Assembly (NCBI GenBank): GCA_963663865.1
Contig: OY760686.1
Coordinates: 224,001-288,000, forward strand
DNA: 64,000 nucleotides
Reading direction: 5' to 3'
DNA from: Spirochaetota bacterium
GTDB lineage: Bacteria > Spirochaetota > UBA4802 > UBA5550
Part shown: positions 2,576 through 22,100 of the stretch, piece by piece
Position numbering within the stretch: position 1 is the first letter of the stretch
Layout of the letters: each line of letters opens with the position of its first letter
The notes under the pieces: generated by a model
Databases searched by the model: none
Told to the model about the DNA's origin: nothing
The model's input: the letters and a program-made list of their open reading frames with translations, nothing else
Made by a program: the position numbers and the translations under genes

Positions 2576-3259
2576 ATGAACAGGCAAGCAAGTAAAGCAT
2601 CAACAGTAATTGAGATGAGAAGACAAATCAACTCGGATTACATGGACATGCTTATAGACCTTAACAGGGAACTCCAGAGCTGCCAAAACGAAATAAAGAA
2701 ACTCGTTGCTAAATCCATTGAATATGAAATGGGTATAGAAGCAAGTGACCGATGGCTGGCGGCAGACAGACGCAATGACACAGAGGGCTTTGAGTCCGCC
2801 TCAAGAACGATTGGCAACCTGAATAAACTTGAAAAAGATTTTACCTGTCTCCTCAAAAATTCGCGCAGCAGCTTTTCAGGCTTTACCCTTAAGAAAAGAA
2901 CAAAGCCATGTAACTATCTTCTTGCCGCAAAAACAAGTCCACTTCCCAAAAAAGATACTGCCAGACCCAAAAGAGGCAAGGTAATTGCCGTAGATTTCAA
3001 AGGTAGAGAGAGCGCCATCATAGACCTGACACGCAATTATCTGAATGACATAGAATCCCGCATATACATGTCAGCGATAAATCTTGCCTGTTCAAGTGCA
3101 TGGCGTGAGTGGAACGAAAGCATGCCTGCCGGATCTATAGTTGACTTTGCTCCGGAGGCCCTATTTAATACCGGAGATGAGAATGTTACCTGTCTGATGA
3201 AACTCTGGGAGATTGTAACTGCCTGCATTGACAATTTTGACCACCGGACTGATTTGTGA
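2576..3259 (+). CDS. Hypothetical protein
   Basis: 227-aa ORF with G-rich RBS and N-terminal coiled coil; no recognised motif. Confidence 0.55.
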   Translation: MNRQASKASTVIEMRRQINSDYMDMLIDLNRELQSCQNEIKKLVAKSIEYEMGIEASDRWLAADRRNDTEGFESASRTIGNLNKLEKDFTCLLKNSRSSFSGFTLKKRTKPCNYLLAAKTSPLPKKDTARPKRGKVIAVDFKGRESAIIDLTRNYLNDIESRIYMSAINLACSSAWREWNESMPAGSIVDFAPEALFNTGDENVTCLMKLWEIVTACIDNFDHRTDL

Positions 3260-3340
3260 TAATACAGAAACCGGCAGTTGAGCAATATGAGCATCTGAGA
3301 CACCATTCTAAACCATATGGGAAATGAGTGACATCAACAC

Positions 3341-4808: not shown

Positions 4809-5219
4809 ATGAGCAAAAACTCAATATTTAAGATGATCTGTTACATGAACGATTACACCCTGTGGGATGAGACGATTCATGATAACGTGCTCAGGTTTCA
4901 TAAATCGTATTCGATCTATCCCAACATCATGCTTGCATCAAAGAATACATGGGATAAAATAGATGAATTCGCCAATCTCCTTCATCCGGATTCCATTATA
5001 GATTCTGATGATTATATCTTCGACGAAGACATGGACGACCACGCGATTAAGCCCATCTCTTCCTTTGAGTCAGATGACTATACTCTTCATTTCTGTGTCG
5101 ATGAAAAGGCGAATGAGAATTACTTTTTTCTGGTCTTCGATGAAACTCCAATTTTTGACGGTGAACCATACGAATATGATGACGGAGAAGATGCAGTGAT
5201 TTATAGAAGAATAGCCTGA
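4809..5219 (+). CDS. Acidic hypothetical protein
   Basis: 136-aa ORF with GAGG RBS. Confidence 0.55.
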   Translation: MSKNSIFKMICYMNDYTLWDETIHDNVLRFHKSYSIYPNIMLASKNTWDKIDEFANLLHPDSIIDSDDYIFDEDMDDHAIKPISSFESDDYTLHFCVDEKANENYFFLVFDETPIFDGEPYEYDDGEDAVIYRRIA

Positions 5220-5267
5220 GTTGTTCTTGTAGCCTTTTTTAATAGATTTTTATTTAACGGAGATGAT

Positions 5268-5660
5268 ATGAAACTAGAAGGATTTGGGATATTTGTAAAG
5301 GATATGCCCGTGATGGTTCGTTTTTACAGAGACGTGTTAGGATTTGATATTAAAGAAGATGAAAATACAACCAATGTTTATTTGGTAAAAGACGGAACGC
5401 TGTTCCTGCTTTATAGAAGAACTGATTTCGAAAAAATGGTAAATCATGGTTTTGAGTATGTGAAAAACCTAAACGGTCATTCTGAAATAGCTTTAAGTGT
5501 TGAAAATTATAGTGCTGTCGATAGAACATTTAATGAAGTAATTGGGAAAGGGGCTGTATCAGTTCTGGAACCAACAACAGAATCCTGGGGTCAACGGACA
5601 TGCTATATCGCAGACCCTGAAGGGAATTTAATTGAAATAGGATCATTCCAAAAGGATTGA
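5268..5660 (+). CDS. VOC/glyoxalase family protein
   Basis: FYRDVLGF and WGQRTCYIADPEGNLIEI motifs. Confidence 0.9.
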   Translation: MKLEGFGIFVKDMPVMVRFYRDVLGFDIKEDENTTNVYLVKDGTLFLLYRRTDFEKMVNHGFEYVKNLNGHSEIALSVENYSAVDRTFNEVIGKGAVSVLEPTTESWGQRTCYIADPEGNLIEIGSFQKD

Positions 5661-5669
5661 ACGATTAAA

Positions 5670-5834
5670 ATGGGAACGACGCCTCAGTTTATAGAATTTG
5701 TTATCGATCAGATTGATCATCGTTGGAACAAAAGATACAGAAAGATGTTCGGTGAATATATGGTTTATGTAAATGATAAGCCAATACTGCTTGTATGTGA
5801 TAATACCGTTTATGCAAAAAGGGCTTCTCTGTAG
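5670..5834 (+). pseudogene. Truncated TfoX/Sxy N-terminal-domain gene
   Basis: Hand translation MGTTPQFIEFVIDQIDHRWNKRYRKMFGEYMVYVNDKPILLVCDNTVYAKRASL*; RKMFGEY..Y...K....CDN is the TfoX_N pattern; stops after 54 aa. Confidence 0.65.
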
Positions 5835-5953
5835 AGAGTTTTGAAACTGAACCTTCTACGGAAGGCAATGGATCAAAAAACGGGGATATGTTTCTGATTT
5901 TTGGAAAACTAAGATTTGGGAAAATTCTGGGTGATTAACCAGTCGAGCAATAT

Positions 5954-6568
5954 CTATGAACTTTTTAATCCGTTTTCGATAATTTTATGTAATTTCGTTG
6001 AATCTGCTAATTGGACGCAGTCAATTGATGCCTGGATATATTCATTAGGAGCTGCAACTGAATAATCAATAAATTCATACCCATTATATGTTGAAATCAT
6101 ATCAAAGAAAAGCCGTGTTATTCTCCCATTTAGTTCATAAAATGGATGGAGTGCAATTAACTCGCCTTGATAATATGCTAACTTTTTTGAAAATTCAATT
6201 CTATTTCGAGAATTAAAACTACGTAAATAGTTATCTTTTTCAAGATTCGAAAATATTATTTGAGAATTCCTTTTTACAAATGCCCCCTGACAAAATCGGC
6301 TATTCCCTTTAGTCATATTGAAGGTTCTGTATTCCCCTGCCCATTCATACAGAGATTCAAATGTTCTTTTATGCATCGATTTGAAATAATTTTCATCGAA
6401 GATGGTGTCTTCTTCAAGTTCATCATAAAATATCAGATACGCATCTTCCAGAAGAGTGCGTTCTAATTCATGAATTTCGTCAGGATCGGTTATGTCTAAT
6501 TTATTTTTGGGAATGCTTGTGCCGGGGAGGTAGATTGAACTACTTACCAGATGATACTTTGATTCCAT
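5954..6568 (-). CDS. Fic-domain protein (putative adenylyltransferase toxin)
   Basis: HPFYELNGRITR Fic motif variant; LYEWAGEYR; NKLDITD as in class I Fic toxins. Confidence 0.85.
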   Translation of the reverse strand: MESKYHLVSSSIYLPGTSIPKNKLDITDPDEIHELERTLLEDAYLIFYDELEEDTIFDENYFKSMHKRTFESLYEWAGEYRTFNMTKGNSRFCQGAFVKRNSQIIFSNLEKDNYLRSFNSRNRIEFSKKLAYYQGELIALHPFYELNGRITRLFFDMISTYNGYEFIDYSVAAPNEYIQASIDCVQLADSTKLHKIIENGLKSS

Positions 6569-6692
6569 GCTCTTTTTTTAATTTTATAATTTTATCTTGA
6601 ACCGGTTTGTCAGCAACAATATACCCTTCAATTGCTTGAGTTGTCCTTATAGTCTTTTTTAATAATTTTTTATTAATTGGTTTTTTATTCAT
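6540..6692 (-). CDS. Putative Fic antitoxin (VbhA/FicA-like), 50 aa, missing from the ORF track
   Basis: Hand translation MNKKPINKKLLKKTIRTTQAIEGYIVADKPVQDKIIKLKKEHGIKVSSGK*; TQAIEG fits the (S/T)xxxE(G/N) inhibitory motif; overlaps the Fic start. Confidence 0.75.
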   Translation of the reverse strand: MNKKPINKKLLKKTIRTTQAIEGYIVADKPVQDKIIKLKKEHGIKVSSGK

Positions 6693-6730
6693 ATTTTCTA
6701 ACCCACTTATATCTCAATAATAAGCAGCAT

Positions 6731-6744
6731 TTGACAATTGTCAA
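6731..6744. promoter_or_regulatory. Perfect palindrome TTGACAATTGTCAA providing a -35 hexamer upstream of the Fic TA operon
   Basis: 14-bp palindrome ~40 bp upstream of the antitoxin ATG. Confidence 0.45.
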
Positions 6745-6774
6745 GATATAATCATATTCTGGAAAAATTGGTGT

Positions 6775-7707
6775 TCACTCCCCATATACCGCGGCAAGCT
6801 CACTAATTCTGCGCTTCATTTCAGTGCGGACATGCAGCGGTTCCAGACACTCGCATCTGCTCCCGAAGCTGAGAAGAATATTGTAGTAGTAGTCGTTCTC
6901 TATAAAAGGGAAATTAACAATGTAGTGCCCGTCACCATCCTGCGAAAAATCTTCATAGGAACAGTAATCGAGAACGGTATCCATGACAGAGCGGTGAATA
7001 CGGATCTTGATGGTGGTCTGCATGCTTGTCAGAACATCAGAGATGTCGAGCTGGGGTTTCTGATATTCACGCGGACTAAAGGATTCCTCTTCTATTTGCA
7101 GGTTTGATATGCGGGAGAGCTTGAAGAGGCGGAAGTCGTTTCGCGTACGGCAGTATCCCTGCCAGTACCAGTGACTGCTTTTCAGTACAAGCTGATACGG
7201 CTCGGCAGTACGAGAGGTCCTGTTCCCGTGGCGGTCGGTATAGTCGAATGAAAGAAGCCGATATCCCCCCAAAGCCGTTTTGATAATTTCCAGATACGGC
7301 TGAATGTTCCTGTTGCCCATCCATGGATGCAGATCAATATGTATCTGGTTCACCTTCAGTTCAATGTCATTGGACCTCTCGGCGGGGATGAGACTCTTAA
7401 CCTTCGCGAGGGCGTTTGCCAGCTCGTCGCCACGCATAACGCTGGATAGGCCGGAAAGCCCTGTCAGGATAGCGGAGAGGTCGGCGGATGAAAAGACATT
7501 CCTGTCAATCTTGTATCCCGGCATGATCTCAAAGCCGCCGCCGACTCCCGGAGTTGAACGGACGGGAATCCCGGCCATGTTGATGGAGTCAATGTCGCGG
7601 TAGATGGTCCGCGGTGAAACCTCAAACTTATCCGCCAGCTCATGCGCGCTGATACGCTTTTTGTCGAGAAGTATCATGATGATGCTGACAAGCCTGTCGA
7701 TCTTCAT
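6775..7707 (-). CDS. YafY-family HTH-WYL-WCX transcriptional regulator
   Basis: MKIDRL..I...LL, ELA.KFEVS.RTIYRDI, G.GGGF, EPYQL....WYW.GYC..R.DFRLFKLSRI. Confidence 0.9.
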   Translation of the reverse strand: MKIDRLVSIIMILLDKKRISAHELADKFEVSPRTIYRDIDSINMAGIPVRSTPGVGGGFEIMPGYKIDRNVFSSADLSAILTGLSGLSSVMRGDELANALAKVKSLIPAERSNDIELKVNQIHIDLHPWMGNRNIQPYLEIIKTALGGYRLLSFDYTDRHGNRTSRTAEPYQLVLKSSHWYWQGYCRTRNDFRLFKLSRISNLQIEEESFSPREYQKPQLDISDVLTSMQTTIKIRIHRSVMDTVLDYCSYEDFSQDGDGHYIVNFPFIENDYYYNILLSFGSRCECLEPLHVRTEMKRRISELAAVYGE

Positions 7708-7763
7708 GTTATACCCCCCGTGTGAAATTGCTGCCGCTGCGCTGGAGGCTCCTTCAGCCTGCA

Positions 7764-9035
7764 TTAAAGAAAGCTGGCGAAGAGATAAATATTCAATACG
7801 GTAACCAGTGCTCCTGTCAGATACAGAACTGCTGCGTTGGCCTTTGAATTTTTGTACTCTCCCATTACCCTTCCGGAGGATGTCAGATAAACCTGCAGAA
7901 ACACGGTAAAGGGCAGCTGAATACTGAGCATCATCTGGGATATTATCAGTCCCCTGAACGGGTCAGTTATGAGAAAGATTATGCCCAGTGCCGCCACAAA
8001 CGACAGAAGGATTCCGGTTTTTGAGTGTACATCCTTTATGTCATACGGCTCTTTAAATATTCCGGAAAATATTGAGCCTGCCGCCATTCCTGATGTAATG
8101 GTCGACGCCACGCCAGCGAAAAGAAGCGCAATTGCGAATATAAACGCGGAATGGCCGCCAAGAAGGGGAGAGAGAAGACCCTGCGCCTGCTGAAGCTCGG
8201 TTACCTTAACCCCGGCGGCGTAAAAGCCGGATGCTGCAAGCAGAATCATGGCGCTGTTTATCCCCCAGCCGATCAGCATTGAAAAGAGGGTGTCAAAGAA
8301 TTCATACCTGAGTTTTTTTCTGATGACATCCTTATTCTCAAGGTTCCACTGACGGCTTTGAATTATCTCTGAATGAAGAAACAGGTTGTGGGGCATTACG
8401 ACAGCTCCGAGAACGCTCATTACAACCACTATGGAACCCTCAGGCATTGACGGTGTAACCCAGGCTTTTCCGGCCGCGGCCCAGTCTATTTTTACAAGCG
8501 AGAGCTCATATAGAAACGACAGTCCTATGACCGACACAAAGGCTATTATCCACTTTTCAATCATGCGGTATGAGTTGGTAAAGAGCATGATGATAACAAA
8601 GACTGTCACGAGAACTGCTCCTGCTCTTATGGGAATATTGAAGAGCATGTTCAGGGCGATTGCCCCGCCAAGAATCTCGGCAAGCGAGGTCGAAACCGAA
8701 GCCAGAACGGCTGATCCGAGAAGCGGCACCGACCAGCGCCTTTTCAGGTAGGTTGTCGCTGCTTCGGCCAGGCACAGGCCGGTTACTATTCCGAGGTGGG
8801 CAACATTGTGCTGAAGCAGAATGAGCATTACAGTTGAAAGGGTAACCACCCAGAGAAGGGCGTATCCGTAATCGGCTCCTGAGGCAAGGTTTGATGCCCA
8901 GTTGCCCGGGTCTATGAAGCCCACCGTAACGAGAAGACCCGGTCCCAGATATTTGAGAATCTCAAGGCCGCCCAACCGGGGATTGTGATGGGCTGAATCA
9001 TATCTCTTTTTGATATAGCCGAATAATCTGATCAT
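7764..9035 (-). CDS. mntH: Nramp-family divalent metal (Mn2+/Fe2+) transporter
   Basis: GPGLLVTVGFIDPGNW and GAVVMPHNLFLHS signature motifs; many TM segments. Confidence 0.9.
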   Translation of the reverse strand: MIRLFGYIKKRYDSAHHNPRLGGLEILKYLGPGLLVTVGFIDPGNWASNLASGADYGYALLWVVTLSTVMLILLQHNVAHLGIVTGLCLAEAATTYLKRRWSVPLLGSAVLASVSTSLAEILGGAIALNMLFNIPIRAGAVLVTVFVIIMLFTNSYRMIEKWIIAFVSVIGLSFLYELSLVKIDWAAAGKAWVTPSMPEGSIVVVMSVLGAVVMPHNLFLHSEIIQSRQWNLENKDVIRKKLRYEFFDTLFSMLIGWGINSAMILLAASGFYAAGVKVTELQQAQGLLSPLLGGHSAFIFAIALLFAGVASTITSGMAAGSIFSGIFKEPYDIKDVHSKTGILLSFVAALGIIFLITDPFRGLIISQMMLSIQLPFTVFLQVYLTSSGRVMGEYKNSKANAAVLYLTGALVTVLNIYLFASFL

Positions 9036-9110
9036 CAAACACCTCTTACTGGTATAACTCCAAATAATTCACATTATAAAAACTTCTCATAATTTTCTGA
9101 GATGATTTTG

Positions 9111-9138
9111 AATTGTTGCCATGCAGATGTCAACAATT
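9111..9138. promoter_or_regulatory. Inverted-repeat operator AATTGTTGCCAT-gcag-ATGTCAACAATT
   Basis: 12-bp arms with 1 mismatch between divergent mntH-yafY and hydrolase genes. Confidence 0.6.
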
Positions 9139-9190
9139 ACAGGATATATTAAACACGTAAATAAAGCAATCTGCCGGATAGGAGGAACAT

Positions 9191-9682
9191 ATGCAGGATA
9201 AAGCGCTGGTCGTTATCGATATACAAAACGACATCACAAAGAATTACAGGGATATTATCAGCAATATCAATAAGGCTATTGATTGGGCTGTTAATGAGAA
9301 TATTCATGTTGTTTACATAAGGCATGAAAATCTGTCAGCCGGTACGAGGACTTTCAAACCCGGAACGCGCGGGGCAGAACTGGTACCGGAGTTGAAAATT
9401 GTATCAAAGAATGTCTTCACCAAGTACAAGGGAAACGCATTAACCAGCGATGGCTTTGCCGAGTTTCTCGCAAAAAACAGGATACGTGAGTTCTACATAG
9501 CCGGGGCAGATGCTGTTGCCTGTGTAAAATCAACCTGCTTCAATCTGCGTAAGACGGATTACAGCGTCAGCGTTCTGTCGGACTGCATCACCAGTTATGA
9601 CAAGAGGAAAATCGACGAGATGCTCAGGTATTATGAGAGCAAGGGGTGTGAGGTAGTGTGTTTGGAGGAGCTGGGAGTGTGA
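9191..9682 (+). CDS. Isochorismatase-family cysteine hydrolase
   Basis: ALVVIDIQND, FTKY, GADAVACVKST (Asp-Lys-Cys triad); GGAGG RBS. Confidence 0.88.
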   Translation: MQDKALVVIDIQNDITKNYRDIISNINKAIDWAVNENIHVVYIRHENLSAGTRTFKPGTRGAELVPELKIVSKNVFTKYKGNALTSDGFAEFLAKNRIREFYIAGADAVACVKSTCFNLRKTDYSVSVLSDCITSYDKRKIDEMLRYYESKGCEVVCLEELGV

Positions 9683-10145
9683 GGAGTTTTTATGATGGGC
9701 TGTTAAACGGAGGGGATGTGCCTCGTCGTTTTTTTGTTGGGGAGAATGGGGCTGGAAGGATTGAATTGAAGATGAAGGAATTGGACGAGACGGGAAGATG
9801 AAAAAAGTGAATTGCTGATAAAAAAGCAGACGAACTGAAAGTGAGGAAGATTGCATTGAATACCAAGGATGGGAGGAACTAAAAATTTGGGAAGATTGGA
9901 ACAGGAAAAAATTTCTTGCAAAAGTGGAAGATATGGTGGAGGGATTGGGGTAAAATGAAATGATTTATCGGGCAGCAGATGAGTTAGATGCTGGATTAAT
10001 CGGAATTGGCTTTTTGCCGGAGCTGCCAATGTGATTTTTGATGTCAGTGATTGTTGGAGTGTTGCTGGGAAGTATGTTGTGGGGAAGGATATTATATTAT
10101 ATTCGTAAAATGATAGTTATGTGCAATTTTAATACTAGGTAACTT

Positions 10146-11279
10146 ATGAATTCTTCAACAGATATTCTTGAATTTAAAAATATTGTAAATCTTATACTTC
10201 ATTATTTTGATCATGGAATTATAAAAAAGGATCAAATTGCCAAGAGACATATAATAGAAAAATTATCACTTCCTTATCTTGACGATGAATTAATTTTAAA
10301 TCCAATTGTCATGTGCCAATTTTTGGTTACTCAGTTTATAGGTCTTTACTCTTCTCTTGATGCGGAAACAAGGAGTCTATTTGATAGCGTCTATTCTCGA
10401 TTTAACAGTTATGAGTTATTTCTTAGAATACGATCCTTTGATCCTAACCATGGTCTTTATTACCCACATAAATTTGAAACATCAGATTGTTCATATTTTA
10501 TAGACCGAAACAAGCCTTATTTGATAACAATTACTTCCAAAAAATGGCTTGAAGAGGAAAAACTAGGTGGTAATGAACTGGGTTGGATTATTAGACCTGA
10601 GATCAAAGCATTGTCAGCAATGTCATTTTCTTTAAAAAGGTTTTATTGTGTGTTTTGTTTAAATAATAATCCTATAGATATACCACTAAATTTTATAACT
10701 GACCAAAATAAGCTATCTCCTGAAATAACAGAAAAAATGAAATCAATTCTATATGTTTTACATTTAATTGATTTCAAAAATAATTATGACAAAGAGATAC
10801 ATGATGATATTAGATTTAATTTTCGTAGCTATCAATTTGTTGATATCGATAGGTCATATGAGCTTTACAATAATTTTAATATCAATGACAGCCTTACTTT
10901 AAGAACATCATTTTTATTCTTATAAGCTGCAATGCTTTTTCATCAGAGTAGAATTTTTGGTGAAGAAGCTTTGCAGAACTTTTATTTTGGTATTGAAGGT
11001 TGTTTACGAGTTATTTATTATAAGCATCATACTAATGGTAATTTTAAAATAAATGAAGTTGAAAAAATAATTGATGAAATTTTTCCATTAGATGGATATT
11101 CTGAATCACTAAGTTCATTTTATGAAAATCGGATTAAGTTAGTTCATCCAGAATCAAGGTTCGACTCAGATTGGAGCCCAAAGTTTTCTGCAGATGAATT
11201 TATGGATAATTATGAGTGGATTTTAAAATTACTTTATTATGCAATATCTGGTATTGTTTATGAGGATAAGCTAATGTAG
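10146..11279 (+). pseudogene. HEPN-motif protein interrupted by a single in-frame TAA at 10923-10925
   Basis: ORFs 10146-10925 and 10932-11279 share a frame (FLFL*AAMLFH); second half has the Rx4H motif YENRIKLVHP; very AT-rich. Confidence 0.65.
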
Positions 11280-11294
11280 TTATTTTAAAACTGC

Positions 11295-11427
11295 GCCCAA
11301 CAAAGATTGGCTGCTCCGGGCGCTCCTCGCAAGCTTTGGCGCGTCCTCGGCCCTTTGGGCACATTGCATTCTTTCACGTTTTTTGCATGTGAAAAAATGC
11401 AATTTCAGACACGCTGTGATGTTATAG
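11295..11427 (+). repeat. Degenerate attC-like recombination site
   Basis: GC-rich imperfect palindromic island in AT-rich DNA; begins GCCCAAC (RYYYAAC) 16 bp after the stop and ends at GTTATAG. Confidence 0.6.
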
Positions 11428-11480
11428 ACAATACCTAACGAACATTGGTTGAGAATGTGATGTAAATAAACAATAAGCGG

Positions 11481-11522
11481 TCTTCAAATCCCCGTGCCCA
11501 AGAGAGCCCTACGACCGTGTGG
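11481..11522 (+). repeat. Left arm of imperfect inverted repeat bracketing the STAND gene
   Basis: TCTTCAAATCCCCGTGC matches the reverse complement of 15766-15782 at 15/17; inner CGTGTGG vs CGTGCGG. Confidence 0.6.
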
Positions 11523-11531
11523 CACAAATAA

Positions 11532-14500
11532 ATGGAAAGGGAATATATGAATATTAACTGGCATAACATAAGACCAATAAACGGTGATCAAAAAGAAGGT
11601 TTTGAAGAATTTATTACACAATTAGCACGTAAAGAGTTAATTCCAAATCAATTTAAATTTATACGTAAAGGAAAACCAGATGCTGGTGTCGAATGCTTTT
11701 GGATTCTGGAAGATAATTCAGAATGGGCTTGGCAAGCAAAATATTTCACATCAAGTTTTGGTGATAGTCAATGGAATCAATTAGATGAATCAATAAAGAC
11801 TATAATTGAAAAACATACAAATGTAGTTAAATATTTTATTGCTATACCAATAGATCCGCCTGATGCGAGAATCGATGGTCAAAAATCACTGCTTCAACGA
11901 TGGGATGAACATGTACAAAAGTGGAAAGATTGGTCAAATAATAAGATCGATTTTGTTCCATGGTGGCACTCTGACTTAATAGAACGAATACAAAAACCAG
12001 AAAATTCCGGTTTTTTACTGTTTTGGTTTGATAAAGAACAATTTACCAATGATTGGTTTAAACAAAAAATCCAACTATCTATCGCTAACTTAGGGAATAG
12101 ATATACCCCGGAAATTAACTTTGAATTAGATATTGTAAAAATATTTGATGGAATTGCTCGTGACAGTAAGTATTCTAAACAATTATACGAAAAGTTTGAT
12201 GATCTTCTTATCAATCTAAAGAAATCTATACCAAGATATGAGGACAGTGAATTATCAAAGCAAATAGAAAAAATAAATCATTGTTGTAATTTTCTTAGCC
12301 AAGAGTATAATGATATAATTTCAATCGATGATAAAGAATATGATTTTGATAAATTAGAATCTAAAGTAACTGAAGTATCCACAATTATTAATAATATTGA
12401 AAACCGAATTGATGAATTAATCAAGATAGTTGATAAGGAAGAAAAAGAAAGACTCAATCACACTAAATACTATATAAGAAATACTTATGCACCTATAAGA
12501 AATTTTCAATCTTTTATTAATAACACAACAATAAAATTATTTAATAAACCATATCTTCTATTGGATGGCGAAGCGGGGATTGGCAAATCACATCTCCTTG
12601 CAGATATTGCTAATATCCGAATTAAAGAAGATAAATATTCATTATTGCTCCTGGGACAACATTTCAATAATACTGAAAGTCCTCAGAAACAAATATTAGA
12701 TCAATTAGATTTAAATTGCAAGTTTGAAGAATTTCTTGAAGCATTAAATTGTAAAGCCCAAATATCAGGAACAAGAATAATAATATTCATTGACGCAATC
12801 AATGAAGGTGCTGGTAAATTCTTTTGGCCAGATTACTTCAACGGTTTTATTATTAATATTTCCAAGTTCAGCTGGTTAGGTTTAGTTTTTTCAATTCGGA
12901 CATCGTATCTCAAACTTCTTGATAATAATATAAATCATTTGTCGAATGAACTAATTAAACACACTCATTATGGATTTAGAAATGTTGAGTATGAAGCATC
13001 AAAATTATTCTTTAAAAATTACAACATTGAATTACCAAGTGTTCCGCTGTTACATCCTGAATTTCAGAACCCACTGTTTTTAAAGCTTTTCTGTGATGGC
13101 CTGGATAAGGCAGGATATACAAAAATCCCAGATGGAATCAACGGTATCACCAAGATTTTTGATTTTTTTATTGATAGCATTAACATAAAACTATCTTCAC
13201 CAAAATTTTTTAATTATTCATCTGGTGTTAATATTGTTGAGAAAGTAATACATCAGCTAACAAAGTATAAATTAATTAACGATTTATATTATATACCAAT
13301 TGATATTGCAGTAAAAAATGTAAGTGACATTCAAAATACCTATAATATTTCAGGAAATTTAACTGATGCTTTGATTTCTGAAGGGATTCTTTCGAAGAAT
13401 TTATTCTGGAAAGAAAAAGAAAATTCTGAAGAAGGTATATATATATCATATGAACGTTTTGAAGATCATTTAGTTGTTTCGGAAATTTTAGATGATATTT
13501 CAAGTGATAAAATCCGCAAGGAATTTGAAGATGAAGGTGCTTTATTTAAATTTATTAAAGATGAATATGCAATCAATTGGCATAAAGGTATCATCGAAGC
13601 ACTTTCAATTCAATTGCCTGAAAAATACAGCATTGAATTATATCAATTATTAGATGATAAAAATAATTATGAGATAGCAGAAGCATTTGTTAGCAGTTTG
13701 TTGTGGAGGAGAAACGACTTAGAAATTGATGAACAAGTGATTGAATATATAAATAGTACAGTTCTTAAATTTCAAGGGACACATGATTATTTTTGGGATA
13801 TAGTAATTGCGGTTTCTAGTAACCCGAATCACTTTTTTAATGGAAATAAAACTCATGAAATACTCAGCAAGTATTCATTATCTGACCGTGATGCATGGTG
13901 GACTCAATTAATTCATTATTGGTATAATGATGAAACTTCAGTAAAAAGATTGATAGACTGGGCTTGGTCAATAGAAGATAAAAGGCATATATCTGATGAT
14001 TCTATTGAGCTTGCTTCAATAATGTTATCATGGTTTCTTGCTAGCACAAATCGTAGATTAAGAGACTCTGCGACAAAAGCACTAATATGTTTACTTGAAA
14101 ATAGAATACATATTTTGAAAAAATTGCTAATAAAATTTGAAAACGTAAATGATCCATATATATATGAACGTGTATTTGCTGTGGCATATGGGTGCACTTT
14201 GCGAACTAAAATAACTGGAAGTCTGCCAGAGTTAAGTCAATACATCTATGACAGAATATTCAATAAAGATAAAGTATATCCGCATGTCTTATTAAGAGAT
14301 TATGCACGTGGTGTTATTGAATACACGCTGCATTTAGGTTTTGATTTACCTTTGGATATTACTAAGGTTAGACCTCCATACAAAAGCGATTTTCCTCCTA
14401 CACCTACAGATGCAGAGATAAATAAATACAAAATTGACTACAATAGCCGGGATTCTCATGATCATGATTGGAGTGTTAATTCAATACTCAGATCAATGGA

Positions 14501-15734
14501 AATTGAATATACCAGAAATGGTAGAGCAGCTGGATATGGTGATTTTGGAAGATATGTCTTTCAAAGTAATTTTTATGACTGGGATAATATTAGTCCAGTT
14601 GATCTAAAAAATATTGCAATAAAAAGAATTTTTGATTTAGGATATGATTCAAAAAAACATGGTGATTTTGATAAAATGATTCCATACCATGGACGTCATT
14701 ATCATACGCAAGAAAGAATAGGGAAAAAATATCAATGGATAGCTATGCACGAATTATTAGCACAAGTTTCAGATAATTACAAAATGAAAGCATCTTGGCG
14801 AAACTGGGGAGAAGACAATACTATGGTTGATTTCTGTGGTCCATGGGAACCCTTTTTAAGAGATATTGACCCATCAACTATTCAAAGAAACAATAAACTT
14901 GCTATTGTTAATATTCAGCCAAAAATAACATATATGAATTGGGATATGGATAACAATCAATGGTTAAATGATATTTCCGATCTTCCAGAACCTAAGATTA
15001 TTATTGAAGATGAGACCAAGGAATGGGTAATGCTTGAAGGACATTATGATTTAAATGAGGAAAAAATATTAGGTAATGAGATATATTCAATTCCTCAAAA
15101 ACAATTTTGGTACCTTATTAAAAGTTATTTCGTTCCGTCAGATCAATACGATGTAATATATAAATGGTTGTCAGATAAAAATTTCATGAACAGGTGGATG
15201 CCAGAGTCACATAATAGTTATGAGATGTTTAATAGAGAATATTACTGGTCACCAGCTTATAATTATTTTAAAAAGGAATATTATGGCGGAGAGCAAATTA
15301 GCAAAATTTATGACCGTGAAAATGATAACGAAATTGGTGATGTAATAGTTACTACTGAATCATACTCGTGGGAAGCAGAATATGATTTATCAAAAGAAGA
15401 AACATTTAGATTTTACAAACCATGCTCAAAGCTTGTTAAGGAATTAAGGCTTTTCTATGGAAATAATGAGAGTTATATGTATTCGGATAATGGGGAACTA
15501 ATATGCTTTGATAACTCAGAAGGAAACTCAGGTTATCCATGCTTGTTTTTTAAAAAATCAGTTTTAAAAGAATTTTTAGAAAAGCATAATTTTAAAATGA
15601 TTTGGACTGTTCTAGGTGAGAAAAACATAATAGGTGGGCATGGTCGTGATAATTATGGGAGATGGCCAATTGTTTCAGGTATATATTCAATGATAAACGA
15701 TGAAATATCAGGTAATATAAAACTGTATGAATAA
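11532..15734 (+). CDS. avs2: AVAST type 2-like STAND NTPase anti-phage protein with N-terminal PD-(D/E)xK/Mrr-like nuclease
   Basis: FEE..QLA and PDAGVEC...WQAKYF nuclease-like motif; Walker A GEAGIGKS; Walker B IFIDAINE; NPLFLKLFC; RDSATKAL; ERIGKKYQWIA; WTVLGEK. Confidence 0.78.
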   Translation: MEREYMNINWHNIRPINGDQKEGFEEFITQLARKELIPNQFKFIRKGKPDAGVECFWILEDNSEWAWQAKYFTSSFGDSQWNQLDESIKTIIEKHTNVVKYFIAIPIDPPDARIDGQKSLLQRWDEHVQKWKDWSNNKIDFVPWWHSDLIERIQKPENSGFLLFWFDKEQFTNDWFKQKIQLSIANLGNRYTPEINFELDIVKIFDGIARDSKYSKQLYEKFDDLLINLKKSIPRYEDSELSKQIEKINHCCNFLSQEYNDIISIDDKEYDFDKLESKVTEVSTIINNIENRIDELIKIVDKEEKERLNHTKYYIRNTYAPIRNFQSFINNTTIKLFNKPYLLLDGEAGIGKSHLLADIANIRIKEDKYSLLLLGQHFNNTESPQKQILDQLDLNCKFEEFLEALNCKAQISGTRIIIFIDAINEGAGKFFWPDYFNGFIINISKFSWLGLVFSIRTSYLKLLDNNINHLSNELIKHTHYGFRNVEYEASKLFFKNYNIELPSVPLLHPEFQNPLFLKLFCDGLDKAGYTKIPDGINGITKIFDFFIDSINIKLSSPKFFNYSSGVNIVEKVIHQLTKYKLINDLYYIPIDIAVKNVSDIQNTYNISGNLTDALISEGILSKNLFWKEKENSEEGIYISYERFEDHLVVSEILDDISSDKIRKEFEDEGALFKFIKDEYAINWHKGIIEALSIQLPEKYSIELYQLLDDKNNYEIAEAFVSSLLWRRNDLEIDEQVIEYINSTVLKFQGTHDYFWDIVIAVSSNPNHFFNGNKTHEILSKYSLSDRDAWWTQLIHYWYNDETSVKRLIDWAWSIEDKRHISDDSIELASIMLSWFLASTNRRLRDSATKALICLLENRIHILKKLLIKFENVNDPYIYERVFAVAYGCTLRTKITGSLPELSQYIYDRIFNKDKVYPHVLLRDYARGVIEYTLHLGFDLPLDITKVRPPYKSDFPPTPTDAEINKYKIDYNSRDSHDHDWSVNSILRSMEIEYTRNGRAAGYGDFGRYVFQSNFYDWDNISPVDLKNIAIKRIFDLGYDSKKHGDFDKMIPYHGRHYHTQERIGKKYQWIAMHELLAQVSDNYKMKASWRNWGEDNTMVDFCGPWEPFLRDIDPSTIQRNNKLAIVNIQPKITYMNWDMDNNQWLNDISDLPEPKIIIEDETKEWVMLEGHYDLNEEKILGNEIYSIPQKQFWYLIKSYFVPSDQYDVIYKWLSDKNFMNRWMPESHNSYEMFNREYYWSPAYNYFKKEYYGGEQISKIYDRENDNEIGDVIVTTESYSWEAEYDLSKEETFRFYKPCSKLVKELRLFYGNNESYMYSDNGELICFDNSEGNSGYPCLFFKKSVLKEFLEKHNFKMIWTVLGEKNIIGGHGRDNYGRWPIVSGIYSMINDEISGNIKLYE

Positions 15735-15740
15735 CCGCCT

Positions 15741-15782
15741 CCGCACGTCCTGTGCTGCGGCGGGTGCGCGGGGATTTTAAGA
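15741..15782 (-). repeat. Right arm of imperfect inverted repeat bracketing the STAND gene
   Basis: CCGCACG...GCGCGGGGATTTTAAGA begins 7 bp after the stop codon. Confidence 0.6.
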
Positions 15783-15803
15783 AACTGGTAACCGTGAGAG
15801 TGT

Positions 15804-15862
15804 GGTATTGCCTATAACAAGAAAAATATAGTTGCGAACGATATCGGGACAATATTTTTCTT
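15804..15862 (+). repeat. Second attC-like site (R'' core plus hairpin), 3' end degenerate
   Basis: GGTATTGCCTATAAC is the reverse complement of 11421-11435 at 14/15; followed by AAGAAAAATAT...ATATTTTTCTT stem; no clean terminal GTT. Confidence 0.55.
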
Positions 15863-15931
15863 AAGCAAGGAGTAATTACAAAATGTGAGATTGGCCCTGT
15901 TCCACGTGCCCCCTCCGGGGGGCAGAAAAGA

Positions 15932-16147
15932 TCAGTTCACATAATACCAGTAAAAATCATTCATCGCCTTTTGCAGTGATTCTGAATTAACTTTTTCCTG
16001 TTCTATATAATTTGATAATGTCAAATATGCTTCACGGAAGTTTCCATTATCAAACTGTTTCCTAAAAACTTCCAAATTATCTTTATGTTTAAAATCTAAG
16101 TTGTTAAGTTCTTTTACAAGATTATTGTAATATTCTTTATTTATCAT
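15932..16147 (-). CDS. Putative immunity protein for the RHS toxin
   Basis: 71-aa AT-rich ORF whose ATG overlaps the toxin stop (ATGA). Confidence 0.7.
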   Translation of the reverse strand: MINKEYYNNLVKELNNLDFKHKDNLEVFRKQFDNGNFREAYLTLSNYIEQEKVNSESLQKAMNDFYWYYVN

Positions 16148-19100
16148 TTTTTTAACTCAAAAAGTTGAAAGTTATTAATAAATTTAGACGTAACAGCTTG
16201 AGTACCACCACCTTTTCCCCATTGAGGCATGGTTTTGCATATTGGTTCAAGATTAAATCCGGTTCCCCATTTACCTTTCGGAATAGTGATATTATTAATT
16301 ATTTGTAGGGTATCAAATTTGCCATAGTGAGAAGGAGAGCTAGGCAGTTGAAGTAAATTTTTAACTTCATTCCTATTAAATCTACTTAAATCATTAAATG
16401 TGAAGTATGTAGTTTCACCTTTTGACATTATATTCCCTTTTAATGCACTATCAATCGCAGGTTGATTTAATGCCCTATACCCAGTCGACGGCACAACATC
16501 CCCATTAGGTTTAACATAAAAGTCTGCTTTAGGTTTTGCAATACTTTTATTGTGTTTTATACCCTTGCCACCACCTCTCCCGGCCCGACTCCAGCTAATC
16601 CCTCCAACAAACATCATCTCCCGGAATTCGCTGAGGTTCTTCGGAGCCACAAGAAGAGCAGCTTTGGAAACGCCGGCACTGGCCGCGTGATAAATGGTCT
16701 TCAGACAGTTCGAAGTCTTAAACGAATTAATGGTCTGCTCGGAGTGGTACCTGTCGTTGTACTCCAAAGCCTCCCTTACAGTCATAATCGACCGGTCAGC
16801 GATTTGCTCAACGTCTATATTCCCGCTCGGATCCCCGAATCCCACCGGATTATTCCGGCAGTACGAGTAACGGTTCCAGCTCTGGGTGTCGTCCTCGTAG
16901 GGAACAACCGAGTCAGCGGTCACAAAGCGGCACAGGCCGGCGTCGTAGTGGCGCGCGTTGAAAAAGATCAGGCCGCTTTCGCGGTCGGTTTCCTGCGAAT
17001 TGAACTTAGGCCGGTATTTCGCAGCGCCTTCAGAGAACCAGCTGCCTCCGAAGGGCAGGTATTCGGTCTTCGAAACGGGCAGGCCGTTATCATCTACTAC
17101 AAGTTTAACAGAATCGAGATGATCAGTCAAATAAAACCGTGCGTCCCCGTTGGCGGCAACTGCAGCAATGCGGATGCCGTTCAGATATAGGTGGTTCACG
17201 GAACACATCGTTCCCGGCGAGTCGTGAAGTCCGTCCGGAACGCTCTGTTCAAGCGCGAAGTACATTGACGGGCTGAGCACTTCCATGTGCGGAGACTTTC
17301 CGGCGGTGTCCGTTATCAGTTTCCTGATACGGAAGCCCTGCTCGTCGTAATGGTATTCACCCGCGGCGATGCCCGATGAGTCGTCTATGACCTTCCGTAT
17401 CCGGCTGGACGCGTCGTACTCAAGACGCCTGGTCCCATCCCCCGCAGATGACTGGTAGACCATGTTGCCGGAGGCGTCGTAGCGCATAACGCTCCCGCCC
17501 GTAGCGGAGGATATTTCCGTCAGAGCGTGGCCGCCTCCCGAATAGCTGCAGGTCATCTCTTCATGCCGGGTGCCTTCCGGCCCGCTTGCCGAGGCGCTCC
17601 GCGAGATCATGTTTCCGTTGGCCGTATAGCCGTAGCTGTGCGAGTATTTTCGAGCCTCAAGGCTATCGGATGATTTTAGAACACCCTCGCCCGCGACGAG
17701 CCGGTTCAGTCCGTCGTATGAGTAGCGGTGTGAGACTTGAGTGCCGGCAGCTCCGCCCGGCCGGAGCTCCGAGAAGTTTACTATTGAGGCGACGCTGTTG
17801 TCGTTCCTGAGCGTGTAGTTCACGTCCTCGAGTTTCCGTGTCATGCCGTTCGATTCTGTCGTGCTCAATATGCCGGTCAGCCTTCCGCGCGCGTCGTATG
17901 AGTATGTGCTTTCGGTGCCGTTGCCGCGTTCTATCGATTCGAGCTGACCGTCTTCGCTGTACGCTATGCGTTCAATCACGTCTCTTTTTTTACCGGAGGA
18001 TATTACTCTCACCGACTCGGCGCCCGCCGATCCGAGAGTGTACTCGGCGCGTATTCCCGAGGCAGTGCGCGGGTCTCGCGGATAGTCAACTGCCGTGAGC
18101 CGGCCCTGCAGGTCATACTCAAAGCGGGTGGTGAAACTCAATCCAGGCTGGTCGCCTGATAACGGGTCGGTGAAGGTGCGCGTCTCGCGGATGACCCTGC
18201 CTGTTTCGTCGTAGCAGAAGTCCTTTCTCTGGAAGGGGCCTATGATTGCAGCGAGGCGCCCGGCCGTGTTCCCCGGACTCTCAGCTCCGCCGTAGATGAA
18301 TCGGGTAGTCTCAATAACGTCAGTCCCTGCGTGAGAAGGCGCGCGGCTTTCTGTTACGCGCCCAAGGCAGTCGTAGTCCATCTCGCTGCGAAGGCCGCGT
18401 GCGTCTATTACAGCCGAGTTCTCTCCGTAGGCGTTGTACTCGAAGCGTGTATATCCGGTGTCAGGACAGCTCGTCTCAACGGGCCGTCCGAATCCGTCGT
18501 ATCTCCACTGGGAGATGCAGTTCCCTGAGCTGTCCCGCGCGCCCGCGGCAAAGAGCGATGGTTCAACTTGAGCACTCATCGCCGCACCGTTCAGGTCCAT
18601 TCTCTTTATGCGCCGTCCAGCCTGATCGTAAGCAAATCCCATTGAGGCCTCGACAAACCTTCCGTCGTCGCCCGTTCCCGAATCGGTGACGTATAGCAGA
18701 AGGCCGCGGCTGTTCGTAACGGTTTTGCGGGTGCGCCTTCCGGTGCGTTCGGTGACAGCCCACGGATTGCCGTAGATGTACTCAAATGAGGTGACGGCCG
18801 GGCCATCTTCGGGTGATGTCTCCGGAAGGGTGATCTTCACCGCGCGTCCGGCGTAGTCGTATTCTGTAAGCGTAGGGTGCTTTTCGCCTCTATGGGGATG
18901 ATACTCTTCCAGTTCATCTGCGCTGCACCAGTCAGCGCGGCTCCTCCGTGTTACTCGGCCGAGTGCGTCATAGGTAGTAAGTCCGCTTTTCACATGCCGG
19001 CCGTTGCCTGCGCTTTTCACCGAGTGAAGCACTCGTCCGCAGCCGTCACCGTACACGGCCTTTTCTATGTCCGGGTCTCCCGATCCGGTGAAGAGCGTAA

Positions 19101-22100
19101 CGTGAGCTGACAGCGGAAAGGCATCGTGCCGGTAGACAAACTCCGAGAGTCTGCGCTTCTCTTCGGAGATGACCTCGCACTGCGAGCATATCCTCCCCTG
19201 AGAATCATAAGCAGTAAACGACTGCTGAGAGCCCGGCCCGGAGGCGGACATGACCTTTCCGAATGCGCTGCCGTAATCGTACTCGAAGCGGGTAATGAGC
19301 GGCTCGGGTGCAAAGAGCTTTTTTGATGTGACGAACTGGTGAAGCTCACTGTCGTATTCTATCGCAGTTTTTCGTTCAGGGCTGCCGCTCCGGTCTGTCT
19401 CGGAGATCATGTTTCCGTAGATGTCGTACTCCCGGAATATCCGGCGCGGAGCGGGCTCTTGAAGAACGCCGCCGGTGTATTCGGTCTCTTCACTAACCGG
19501 ATTGAAGTTGAAGTCGTATGTGAATCGGGCAGTGGTTTCGTTTTCAGAGCCGGCGTGCTCTTTTCTGAGTTTAACAACTTGAGTGTTGGTCGTCTCATCG
19601 GTCTCAAATTCGGTAATGTTTGTATCAGTACTCTGAGAGCGGACTCCGTCCGCAAAGCGGTCGACACTTCGTTCGGTTTTTGAGATAAGAGCATACCCAG
19701 TCTCAGCGAACTGCATCTCCGATTCGGATGACTCAAAGAGCACCCTGTCGCGGAAGGTGTCGACGCATGAGTTCTCTGCAACGCAGCTTTTCTGATGCTG
19801 TCCGCTCTCTCCGAGCTCGTGTATCCGGTAGCTGTAATCCTGTCTGCGGTACTCAACGCCGTCCGCTCCGGTGAATACTGTCTGTTTAACCGCTCCGGCG
19901 AGGGCACGGTTCCAGAGAAAGTTGCCGTATGGTGTGTTGTGATAGTAAGAAGTCTGCTTCCCGCCCAGGGCATCGGTGACGGTGAAGTTTGAGAACCCGA
20001 AAAAGTCCGTTTCGCGGAAACCGCCGATGAATCGCGAGAAGGCATATCCCCCGCTGTAGCCGTATTTTGTGACAACCTCGTTGCCGGCGCCGTCTGATAC
20101 GGTCATCTTCGTGCAGACCCTGTAGTTTACCGGAAGGTCGGGGACGCCGTCGCCGCCGGTGTTGTCAAAGCCCGATGAGTTTGCGTACTCGAACCGGTAG
20201 ACTCCGCCGGTTCCGTTCGAGACCCTAACAGGCAGGTCGGGCACCGTGCCGGTACTCAGAGCAAAGTGCCACTCGGGGTCGGTGATACTGAAAATTCCGA
20301 TGTCGGTCTTGCCGTCTCCGTTGTAGTCGCCCTGTATCCACTGGTAGGGATAGAACTCCTTGTAGAGACCGGGCCGGCTGAAATCTAGTTCACTTAACAC
20401 TGCAGGCTCAGCGCGGAAGTCTGCAAGCTTCAGAAGCGTGCCGCCGCTATGCAGGATGGGACTCCCCGTGTGATCGAACTCGCCGCGGAACTCCTGCCCG
20501 TCAGAGAGAGTGTATGAGCCGGTGAGGCTGAGCGAGGTGAATCCGAAGCTGTTCCCGATAACGATCTGCCGCAGCGTATCTCCAGCTCTGTACCAGAAAC
20601 CGTCCGTGCACGGATAGTACTCTCCGTCGTAGCTGTAATCGAGACCAGCATCCGATGAACATTGAGAGAAACTTATTCCAGTACTTCCGGCGGAGTAAAT
20701 GCTTTCTTCAATCACGGCCCTGTGCCAGAGCTGTGCGTCCTCCCGGCTGTCACATACGAAAAGTGATGAGATACCGGATGAGCTCTTCGCAGTAAAGAAG
20801 TACAACCCGCCTGACTCGCGGAAATCTTCAGCTGTCAGCGAACCGGTGCTGTCAATCTCAAGGCGGCGGGGCTCTGACTCCGATGAACAGAGGACAAAGG
20901 CGGGCACGTCATCGCTGCCGTTGTCAAGCATCAGAATCTCATTATGCCAATCAGAGTTCCCGTAGAACTTTCCGGTCTGATAAACAGATGAGCCGATTTC
21001 GAAAGAGGGAATCTCTTCCTCAGAAAGCGAGGCGATGTTTTCTTTAATAACCTGCGAGTCACGGACTGACAGGCTCAGAAAGCAGTGTGATTCTCCCGAG
21101 TGTTCGTATAATAAGAGGCAGTCCCCGCCTTCTCCGTGCAGAGCACGCCCGCGGTTTAGTACAGTGAATCTGTCGAGGTCGATGCCGGAGTCTCCGAGAT
21201 AGCGTGCCTCTCCGCCGGAGCTCTGCAAATAGAAGCCTGATTGGAGAGCTCCGGCGGAGTTCCGTCTCCAGCAGAGAATTTCGGGCACTCCTGATGAAGA
21301 AAACGAGCCGGCAAAGGCTCTTTCGCCGCGCCCGGGCCATGTGTTTGAGTCGTAGACATAGTCTACTTTATAAGTCTTTTCCGTGCCTGGAATTACGGCC
21401 GTGCCGCTCCTTATGATAACCTCATCTGCCGGACAGGGCGCGGCGGTGAGCTTTTCTATTCCGGGGCAGTTTGAACCGTCACTGTAGATTCTGTACCTGA
21501 AACCGTCCGGAGCAGCTTCGCCCACCCAGAGCTTGTTGTCGGCCGCGGAAAAGAAGCCTATGTCAGTTCGGCCGTCTCCGTTGAAGTCTCCCTGTACAAA
21601 GCGGGTGATGTCCCTGAACTGAGGCGACCTCGAGAATGTCCTGAAACTGATGCTGCCGTCGCCTGTTTCGCCAAGTGTCCATGTCCCGCTTGAGCGGTCA
21701 AAGAGCAGGAAGTCAGCGCGTCCATCGCTGTTGAAGTCGCCGTAGAAGCGGTCATTTGACAGGAGCATGTTTTCAGGAGCCGTAAATCTTTTGAATAGTT
21801 TCCAGCTCAGAATGAAGCTGCCGTCCGCATCCCTGAACGTTTCACCGACATACCATGATCCGGACCGGCTGTCGTAGATCGAAATGTCAGACCTTCCGCT
21901 GCCGGTGAAATCCCCCTGAAAGAAATGCACTCTGTTTCGGGAAAGACCTGTTTCACTTGAGTCGAATGTCGAATCACAGTTAAGGCCCGGGCCGGGACTG
22001 TAGTCGCTTCTGAAGAGGTTCCTGAAGCAGCGGGCCACTTTGAGAAATTCAAAGCATCCGCCTTTGTTGAGCATCAGCGTCCACTCTCCGGCCGGTTCGT

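Follow-up and report, generated by a model that had tools for sequence, protein, structure and literature searches.

An Avs2 receptor gene in a decayed two-cassette integron-like array of a Spirochaetota genome

The 64-kb stretch of Spirochaetota bacterium DNA analysed here (the window) contains, from position 10116 to about position 15872, a two-cassette array without an integrase, the second cassette of which carries the gene of a complete Avs2 receptor. The GTT.../...AAC repeats that enclose the two genes are cassette ends rather than chance pairs; we read the array in this way because cassettes of the same genome and of its relatives share the end style, because a covariance model of attC sites matches within the array, and because a homologue of the Avs2 gene is found in a metagenome contig within a cassette array. 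It is very probable that the array has a cassette origin and is a decayed relic of the integron system of the organism. The first-pass annotation, an earlier reading of the same DNA, had placed the end of the array at 15862; a position near 15872 is likelier. The features are listed below (positions are those of the window, the basis of the assignment is given in brackets).

10109-10130, + strand: left junction, with an attI-like remnant AATGATAG, then G|TT and the beginning of cassette 1 (20/22 identity to an attI/first-cassette junction)
10116-10132, + strand: cassette 1 start repeat, R' core GTT with outward extension, GTTATGTGCAATTTTAA (13/17 complementary to 11285-11301)
10146-11279, + strand: cargo of cassette 1, an ancestral gene of ~375 aa with a C-terminal HEPN-like domain, split by a TAA (homologues, alignment, predicted fold)
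11285-11301, + strand: cassette 1 end repeat, R'' core ...AAC with outward extension, TTAAAACTGCGCCCAAC
11290-11432, + strand: attC of cassette 1 (attC1), from R'' to a hybrid R', the 3' inner arm L' missing (match to covariance model R1, 36.9 bits)
11421-11435, + strand: cassette 2 start repeat, G|TT crossover, R' with extension, GTTATAGACAATACC (14/15 complementary to 15804-15818)
11436-11531, + strand: 5' leader of the Avs2 cassette (sequence)
11532-15734, + strand: Avs2 (AVAST type 2 STAND NTPase), 1400 aa, intact (PADLOC, NCBIfam and PDB matches)
15735-15818, + strand: conserved 84-nt 3' module, composed of a GC-rich hairpin, a spacer and the cassette-end repeat ending AAC (copies in relatives)
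15804-15818, + strand: cassette 2 end repeat, R'' with extension, GGTATTGCCTATAAC
15819-15879, + strand: terminal attC remnant, an 11-bp stem and nine unpaired bases, then GTAATTAC where R' (GTT...) is expected (fold, geometry)

Cassette ends, recombination sites and related arrays

The complementarities of the cassette ends given by the first-pass annotation, 13/17 for cassette 1 and 14/15 for cassette 2, were reproduced at the same positions by a script recount. The mismatches are oriented: the cassette 1 pair has, at position 11, an A in the start repeat and a C in the end repeat, which form a G.T wobble in the bottom strand only, and the lone mismatch of the cassette 2 pair, at position 8, is again start-A/end-C, so that its bottom strand pairs 15/15 with one G.T. 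The genes of the array were said to be co-oriented and AT-rich, and they are: all lie on the + strand, and the GC content is 0.28-0.34 over 10-16 kb of the window as compared with 0.459 for the genome (3.156 Mb, a single contig).

The repeats are significant because of their position and context; taken alone they are weak. This was assessed genome-wide: for each open reading frame (ORF) of at least 80 aa, the 300 nt upstream and the 300 nt downstream were compared, and the highest-scoring anchored GTT/AAC repeat between the two was taken. A score of at least 12 was reached by 8 ORFs out of 5575 (four at 18, one at 16, one at 14 and two at 12), and Avs2, with 12, is one of the eight. The remaining seven rows are integron-type cassettes, five of them in the integron described below (one of these five being a spurious antisense ORF of the same cassette) and the others solitary, at 979.8 kb and 640.3 kb.

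The second line of evidence is a covariance model, R1, which was built from 21 attC sites (18 from relatives, three from the genome's own integron and none from the window) with an imposed structure of an outer helix formed by the R boxes and an inner helix formed by the L boxes. In the R1 alignment 85.5% of the cells are paired, versus 25.6-33.9% with the partners slid, and eight pairs are changed on both sides (e.g., AU in 11 and GC in 8 at one position). On both strands of the 64-kb window R1 finds a single match, 11290-11432 on the + strand, in full model length with 36.9 bits and an E-value of 7.6e-8 (rough calibration), which spans the first AAC core to the second GTT core and contains non-standard pairs in both helices. 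A covariance check for attC, as the first-pass annotation had suggested and here with a family-specific model, places a site between the very cores that the annotation had claimed. Genome-wide, R1 yields 11 matches, six of them in the integron and the rest at 981336, 640213, 2243244 (minus strand), 1702368 and in the window.

In relatives, the 8-kb region around the array has just short matches, and these fall on the two intergenic stretches. attC1 possesses R'', L'' and GTT. Its stretch 11286-11397 is 84% identical to a site in the related genome G002, and the stretch 11283-11378 is 72% identical to attC1 of the genome's own integron. In both places this attC class adjoins unrelated genes; other copies of the repeat beside unrelated genes, which the first-pass annotation had expected of true cassettes, do exist, and this favours the cassette reading. 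Of the two candidate attC sites of the array, attC1 is model-positive and the other, at the end of the array, is a degenerate hairpin site. As had been noticed, palindromic DNA follows both AAC cores: a 15-bp stem lies inside 11290-11432, and an 11-bp stem is formed by 15819-15829 and 15852-15862.

This terminal stem, folded in the bottom strand, has -10.4 kcal/mol and a z-score of -4.4, and none of 200 shuffled sequences folds as well. The geometry of the terminal site is that of short attCs which follow the same 3' module in three relatives (G013, G009 and G034), and we take it to be an attC whose R' either became GTA by mutation of GTT or disappeared when the cassette was inserted. Joining the start of the Avs2 cassette to this site in silico, as in a circular form, gives a textbook bulged hairpin (-19.4 kcal/mol, z -7.9), in which a bulge of 9 nt separates an outer stem of 15 bp from an inner stem of 11 bp.

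The 3' module itself (region 15735-15819) is 81-87% identical in G013, G009 and G034 and partially present in G010, the likeness ending at ...CCTATAAC(A). In G013 and G034 it follows ORFs that are unlike Avs2. Downstream of it, G013, G009 and G034 carry short attC-type hairpins that end with GTT, e.g., AAC-A-[11-bp stem]-loop-[stem]-AAGGC-GTTATAC. The module recurs in other genera before differing attC hairpins (loci L073 in G013, L071 in G034, L005 in G009 and L072 in G010); its first hairpin is also present on contig L079, described below. We considered that the copies in relatives might be remnants of an Avs2 C-terminus and rejected this. The module could be a terminator or an accessory site; it has no Rfam match, and an Rfam scan of 9000-17000 at E <=1 returned two chance matches to miRNA models, far under the gathering scores.

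At the other end of the array, 10109-10130 is identical in 20 of 22 positions to the attI/first-cassette junction beside the recombinase gene of the genome's own integron (G000:C1:~2284427), and the motif GATAG|TT is common to this left junction and three further attI-like copies in the genome. Left of the junction just ~45 nt of weak attI likeness are kept.

The integron in question (G000:C1:2283206-2292250) lies 2.05 Mb from the window array. Its recombinase gene (2283206-2284294, minus strand) is followed by a 140-nt attI region and then by ~7-10 cassettes comprising about ten ORFs, which are co-oriented and AT-rich, encode 114-309 aa and are mostly separated by GC-rich spacers of 137-265 nt. 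The cassettes start with GTT..., end with ...AAC and bear an inverted repeat that is specific to the cassette, for example 19/20 in the first, 20/21 and 18/19. The ends of the first cassette, GTTGTGCGCAATTTTTAAAA and TTTTAAAAACTGCGCACAAC, nearly match the ends of window cassette 1, the end repeats of the two being nearly identical, and the proteins that the two cassettes encode are unrelated (BLASTP E >=1). The cargo of this integron includes a methyltransferase, AbiTii, a weakly HEPN-like protein, a GNAT protein, a flavodoxin-like protein and a cupin (loci L012 and L074). The absence of an integrase from the array was borne out: the window holds no recombinase and no intI remnant (the best tblastn match with the genome's recombinase has an E-value of 1.8), and the only integron-type recombinase of the genome is the one 2.05 Mb away.

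Further attI-like copies of ~120 nt are found at G000:C1:638755-638880, 979654-979775, 1968241-1968397 and 2870311-2870432 (minus strand); they are 72-80% identical over 120-160 nt, and none has a recombinase. In front of three of the attI-like copies lies an rve-type transposase fragment, and in front of the fourth a tRNA gene (read by eye). The copies at 638.8 kb and 979.7 kb have cassettes with bounding repeats and R1-positive attC sites beside them; neither was found beside those at 1968.3 kb and 2870.4 kb. The cassettes at G000:C1:640309 and 981440 are unlike each other in the ~10 nt that follow GTT; from there on, leader and ORF start are identical in both, and they look like one duplicated cassette in two arrays.

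The end style extends to the family. In 12 loci of 10 genomes (L058-L061, L065, L067-L070, L072, L074 and L075) we delimited, beside homologous recombinases, 60 cassettes bounded by GTT/AAC inverted repeats of 13-26 nt. Of 56 distinct repeat pairs, 53 have the start-A/end-C mismatch as their main or sole one; of all 64 mismatches, 53 fall at position 11 counted from the G of GTT. The start-A/end-C mismatch is A.C in the gene-sense strand and can pair, as a G.T wobble, in the bottom strand only; it is possibly a signal for strand choice. That such pairs occur throughout the lineage implies that R'/R'' complementarity is a house style here, with an outer stem that greatly exceeds the canonical boxes of 7 bp.

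The cassettes of the lineage have a median length of 748 nt; five measure at least 2 kb and two at least 4 kb. The first-pass annotation had called the second window cassette exceptionally large, and at 4.4 kb it would indeed be the largest of 61 measured. The two others of at least 4 kb, L065 4229-8509 (G047) and L067 2192-6508 (G055), contain an IS66 transposase in one case and a DNA methylase in the other. We rejected them as cassettes of a single large gene, the one being inflated by IS66 and the other holding the methylase together with an 827-aa ORF. The latter ORF is on the opposite strand, and the whole is possibly a restriction-modification cassette.

Avs2 itself was encountered in a second array. 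The 5.6-kb metagenome contig L079 encodes an Avs2 homologue with 79% amino acid identity over residues 375-1400, and 3' of its stop codon the same hairpin is found as in the window, followed by an R1-positive attC at 3162-3269 (23.4 bits, E 2.4e-5), whose inner stem is perfect and whose junction reads ...AAAC|GTTAGTA; four further co-oriented ORFs come next, in AT-rich DNA. This contig provides independent sequence-level support for Avs2 travelling as a cassette. Model R1, the shared attC class and L079 together support the proposal of the first-pass annotation that a HEPN-type gene and an Avs2 receptor were mobilised as cassettes.

Cargo of the cassettes and flanking genes

Both PADLOC and NCBIfam assign the large gene to Avs2, in agreement with the earlier description of it as a whole STAND immune receptor: the protein scores 1486.7 bits against PDLC02164, 1370.2 bits against PDLC02162 over residues 6-1397, and 1344.4 bits against NF041813 (cut-off 1000), and matches the structure of AVAST type 2 (Avs2; PDB code: 9o4e) with an E-value of 9.9e-270. 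Avs2 is reported to sense the large terminase of tailed phages, EcAvs2 forming tetramers on the terminase (bioRxiv 10.64898/2026.04.30.721860). By analogy, the protein encoded in the window most likely works as described for its family, as a terminase-triggered anti-phage STAND NTPase. A promoter and terminator scan of 9600-16200 was uninformative, with 37 promoter-like sites against 36.4 expected and three terminator-like sites against 2.1.

Among 63 other genomes of the family, none has Avs2 at E <=1e-20; this absence and the GC content of 0.28-0.34 would fit a horizontal acquisition. Outside the family genomes, a 2016 bioreactor metagenome (X1) has short Avs2 contigs that differ from the window at ~3-13% of positions and have an inserted GT at 15762, within the 3' module, and contigs identical to the window were met in two runs labelled as another organism (X5 and X7). 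A run with the same species label (X8) gave no contig matching the region compared, positions 5000-20000 of the window, which does not prove absence.

Cassette 1 carries two ORFs in the same frame, 10146-10925 (259 aa) and 10932-11279 (115 aa), parted by TAA GCT GCA, the in-frame TAA at 10923-10925 splitting the gene. The read-through protein, with X at the stop, retrieved 132 proteins at E <=1e-3, of which 22 at E <=1e-30, in an exhaustive HMMER search, most of them of 350-400 aa and with alignments that span the stop; a word-index protein search with the same query returned the self-match alone. In an alignment of 36 sequences the column of the stop is K in at least 90%, and R329 and H334, which form an R-x4-H motif, are invariant. 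The AF2 model of the protein has a pLDDT of 88.6 and a pTM of 0.89. In an exhaustive VIA search its residues 245-372 align with the HEPN chains 1jog, 1wwp, 8xdj, 5yep, 2hsb and 7ae2, sacsin HEPN, Csm6 and AbiV with Z 5.1-8.2; for 1jog, 8xdj, 5yep, 2hsb and 7ae2 Z is 6.7-8.2 at an rmsd of 2.9-3.8 over 112-121 residues, values that common helical arrangements can reach. Foldseek against the PDB gave nothing at E <=0.001, HEPN toxins appearing just at E 1.6-1.7, and no Pfam or PADLOC family matches the protein or its 36 relatives. The Z values are middling; since the fold matches all point the same way and the R-x4-H motif accords with them, HEPN is a fair label for the modelled C-terminal domain, which by analogy would be expected to act as an RNase. 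In its present form the gene appears to be a nonsense pseudogene or a split gene, broken just before the HEPN domain. What the first-pass annotation called a HEPN RNase gene is thus retained as regards the HEPN-like domain, on account of motif and fold, and revised as regards its integrity, the nonsense codon leaving two in-frame ORFs.

The left neighbour of the array is an isochorismatase-family gene (9191-9682). To the right of the array, on the minus strand, are the 3' end of a 71-aa ORF (15932-16147) and an ORF of 2485 aa with SpvB, TcdB-middle and RHS-repeat domains. The latter (region 15932-23601) also contains FG-GAP; its 3' end has a GC content of ~41%, and its stop overlaps the start of the 71-aa ORF. 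Rhs-type polymorphic toxins with an exchanged tip and an immunity gene have this layout. Farther left in the window, 5954-7764 (minus strand) holds a Fic/DOC-family gene beside a WYL/HTH/WCX regulator, just left of an Nramp transporter; this segment has a lower GC content and looks accessory.

Decay of the array and alternative explanations

We propose that the cassettes once moved as excised circles, for whose insertion the integron recombinase would have acted on the folded bottom strand of attC with the crossover between G and TT. The array has decayed since then: attC1 is without L', the last R' is GTA, and of the attI-like part an eroded remnant is left. The degenerate state of the sites implies that Avs2 is probably fixed in place and that the array is probably no longer mobile. 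The receptor could be expressed from the 96-nt leader of its own or by read-through; it would bind the large terminase of a tailed phage and tetramerise, and the N-terminal effector would thereby be triggered, which would result in abortive infection.

Several observations weigh against a cassette origin. The repeats alone are little above chance, as 587 inverted pairs of at least 12 nt exist within a 6.8-kb region, a chance GTT/AAC pair of 11/11 lies inside the Avs2 coding sequence, and the repeat score of 12 barely tops that of the best chance pair (11) of the same 6 kb. attC1 is deleted exactly where the copies of G002 and of the own integron bear L', the 3' inner arm; its bottom strand as it stands has z -2.3 and no simple R/L hairpin, and the circular form made in silico is no better. 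In the bottom-strand folding that the first-pass annotation had proposed as a check, the terminal site has z -4.4. The terminal R' reads GTA (GTAATTAC) instead of GTT, and model R1 misses the terminal site even at E <=10; R1 is blind to the short AT-rich attC class, in the window as in G013 and G034. The attC of L079 is unlike that of the window, which implies that the two Avs2 cassettes share the gene and the hairpin, not the recombination site. With blastn-short, none of the three intergenic stretches has a second copy in the genome at E <=0.01; a sensitive search gave weak ones. From the blastn-short blank a repeat family had been thought lacking, a view overturned by the more sensitive searches. 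Lastly, contigs from public runs contain no circular or deletion joints at the cassette borders, and contigs cannot show rare forms.

Some of these facts bear on whether the array is a relic at all. It might still be a working reservoir, both cassettes being excisable in trans by the recombinase at 2.284 Mb, as has been proposed for attC clusters without an integrase (CALINs) where the genome encodes an integrase at another place. That recombinase looks catalytically complete, Avs2 is intact, and the ends of its cassette, pairing 15/15 in the bottom strand, give a circular attC that folds well in silico. Excision of cassette 2, however, needs the R' side of attC1 as well as the terminal R', and attC1 is without L' and the terminal R' is GTA; furthermore, the nonsense codon in the cassette 1 gene suggests relaxed selection, and the public-run contigs show no border joints, a weak piece of evidence that comes from contigs alone. 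We consider continued mobility unlikely and retain the interpretation of the array as a decayed relic.

The 14/15 inverted repeats around a single gene, in a genome rich in insertion sequence (IS) elements and repeats, might also be those of a non-autonomous transposon with 15-bp terminal inverted repeats (11421-11435 and 15804-15818) that carries Avs2 and is served by a transposase in trans. This is highly improbable: the repeats are surrounded by no target-site duplication, the left one starts exactly at the expected R' of attC1, the right one ends exactly where relatives continue with attC hairpins ending in GTT, both are anchored by GTT/AAC and show the A/C mismatch, as cassettes do, and these ends have no other copy in the genome. 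Equally remote is the explanation that the repeats arose by chance in AT-rich DNA and that the genes form an ordinary horizontally acquired defence islet without integron history, which the many inverted pairs, the 11/11 pair within Avs2 and the lack of an integrase in the window might suggest, and which is at odds with an R1 match exactly between the claimed cores, an attC class common to the own integron and G002, a left junction identical at 20/22 to the attI junction, the oriented A/C mismatch of both repeats, the place of Avs2 in the top 8 of 5575 ORFs and the L079 homologue within a cassette array. IS elements and rearrangements could plausibly have parted the array from the integron.

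The family recombinase and comparison with known systems

The recombinase at 2.284 Mb has 363 aa, with PF13495 (SAM_4) and PF00589 domains and an N-terminal extension of 88 residues. It scores 221.3 bits against NF040815 (cut-off 220) and 204.1 bits against TIGR02249, under the cut-off of 265; the latter match is in two pieces and leaves positions ~180-215 unmatched, the segment within which we presume the IntI-specific I2 domain to lie. Residues 93-266 and 291-363 align with residues 11-181 and 245-317 of VchIntIA (PDB code: 2a3v), so that 24 residues face 63. The distance between GKGKKDR and HSLRHSFAT corresponds in length to that of Xer, and the C-terminus is ...SPL as in VchIntIA.

A homologue of this recombinase (E <=1e-40) is present in 51 of the 64 family genomes, and a canonical IntI in two, G012 and G008 (the latter with an internal TGA), whose IntI match TIGR02249 contiguously over positions 1-314 with 387-400 bits. 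The first G|TT stands 140-210 nt from the start of the divergent recombinase gene in 8/8 loci examined (in G000, G058, G064, G062, G047, G055, G060 and G024). A pattern search of genome contigs for relatives of the recombinase returned distant matches in metagenome-assembled genomes, with 28-44% identity, which are uninformative on the family.

We tentatively suggest that the family has a distinct class of chromosomal integrons, in which an Xer-length relative of IntI without I2, a region regarded as necessary for the recombination of folded attC sites, heads arrays of up to at least 17 cassettes with an outer stem of 12-26 bp, a bottom-strand mismatch and cargo up to the size of Avs2, and of which the window array is a stranded fossil; the proposal is plausible rather than probable. 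The 20-residue I2 domain is described as accommodating the extrahelical bases of attC (Escudero et al. 2016), and intermediates between Xer and IntI are stated to be lacking (Escudero et al. 2020). A recombinase without I2 could be a natural Xer-IntI intermediate, or a reversal. Provided that this recombinase does move the cassettes, it is a natural enzyme with which to test how single-strand attC recombination originated. In their survey, Cury et al. (2016, PMC4889954) reported that recombinases without the IntI-specific profile adjoin fewer than three attC sites only, and concluded that they are not IntI. Should the recombinase of this family move these cassettes, screens of the IntegronFinder type would mislabel whole integrons as CALINs.

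Compared with IntI (TIGR02249; VchIntIA, PDB code: 2a3v), the recombinase shares the SAM_4 N-domain, the catalytic domain, the orientation divergent from attI and array, and the ...SPL end; unlike IntI, it reaches 204 bits where the cut-off is 265, has 24 residues in place of 63 and is extended by 88 residues at the N-terminus. The window array resembles a CALIN, a common kind of element according to Cury et al. (2016, PMC4889954), in its co-oriented, promoter-poor cassettes, the G|TT start, the AAC-bearing attC, and the location of the integron elsewhere in the genome with no integrase near. It differs from CALINs as characterised in that article in that the two ends of a cassette, in this lineage, remain complementary beyond the 7-bp R boxes, over 13-26 nt in the outward direction and with a fixed A/C mismatch, its attCs are both degenerate, one being matched by a family model, and the cognate recombinase is without the IntI-specific region.

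Defence genes are established cargo of integron cassettes. Darracq et al. (bioRxiv 10.1101/2024.07.02.601686) reported 783 defence systems in integron cassettes, of a size that 'never exceeds 2 components' and with shorter coding sequences, and Kieffer et al. (bioRxiv 10.1101/2024.07.02.601719) described phage-defence cassettes in mobile integrons. The present arrays have defence genes as cassettes in common with these reports, the genome's own integron adding AbiTii and a weakly HEPN-like protein. Unlike the small, 'streamlined' defence cassettes surveyed there, the window has a 1400-aa STAND receptor in 4.4 kb. The term 'Avs' as cassette cargo is absent from the main texts of both preprints, whose supplementary tables may list one. 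Avs2 as such is a known system, and the protein matches AVAST type 2 (EcAvs2, PDB code: 9o4e) over its full length; what is particular here is the vehicle, an integron cassette as recognised from its sequence, in a host family that is otherwise without Avs2 (63 genomes searched).

Three elements have not been found described, supplements excluded, and appear to be new: a full-length Avs2 as a cassette, an extended outer stem with a strand-specific mismatch, and an integron platform headed by an IntI relative without the IntI-specific region. A complete 1400-residue STAND receptor as a cassette extends the view of cassette-borne defence as small and streamlined (Darracq et al.). That the receptor travelled in this form implies that the size limit of cassettes is softer than thought, and large sensors can enter the integron gene pool. 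The array shows, moreover, how a mobile defence gene becomes fixed: the recombination sites erode, and the ORF is kept.

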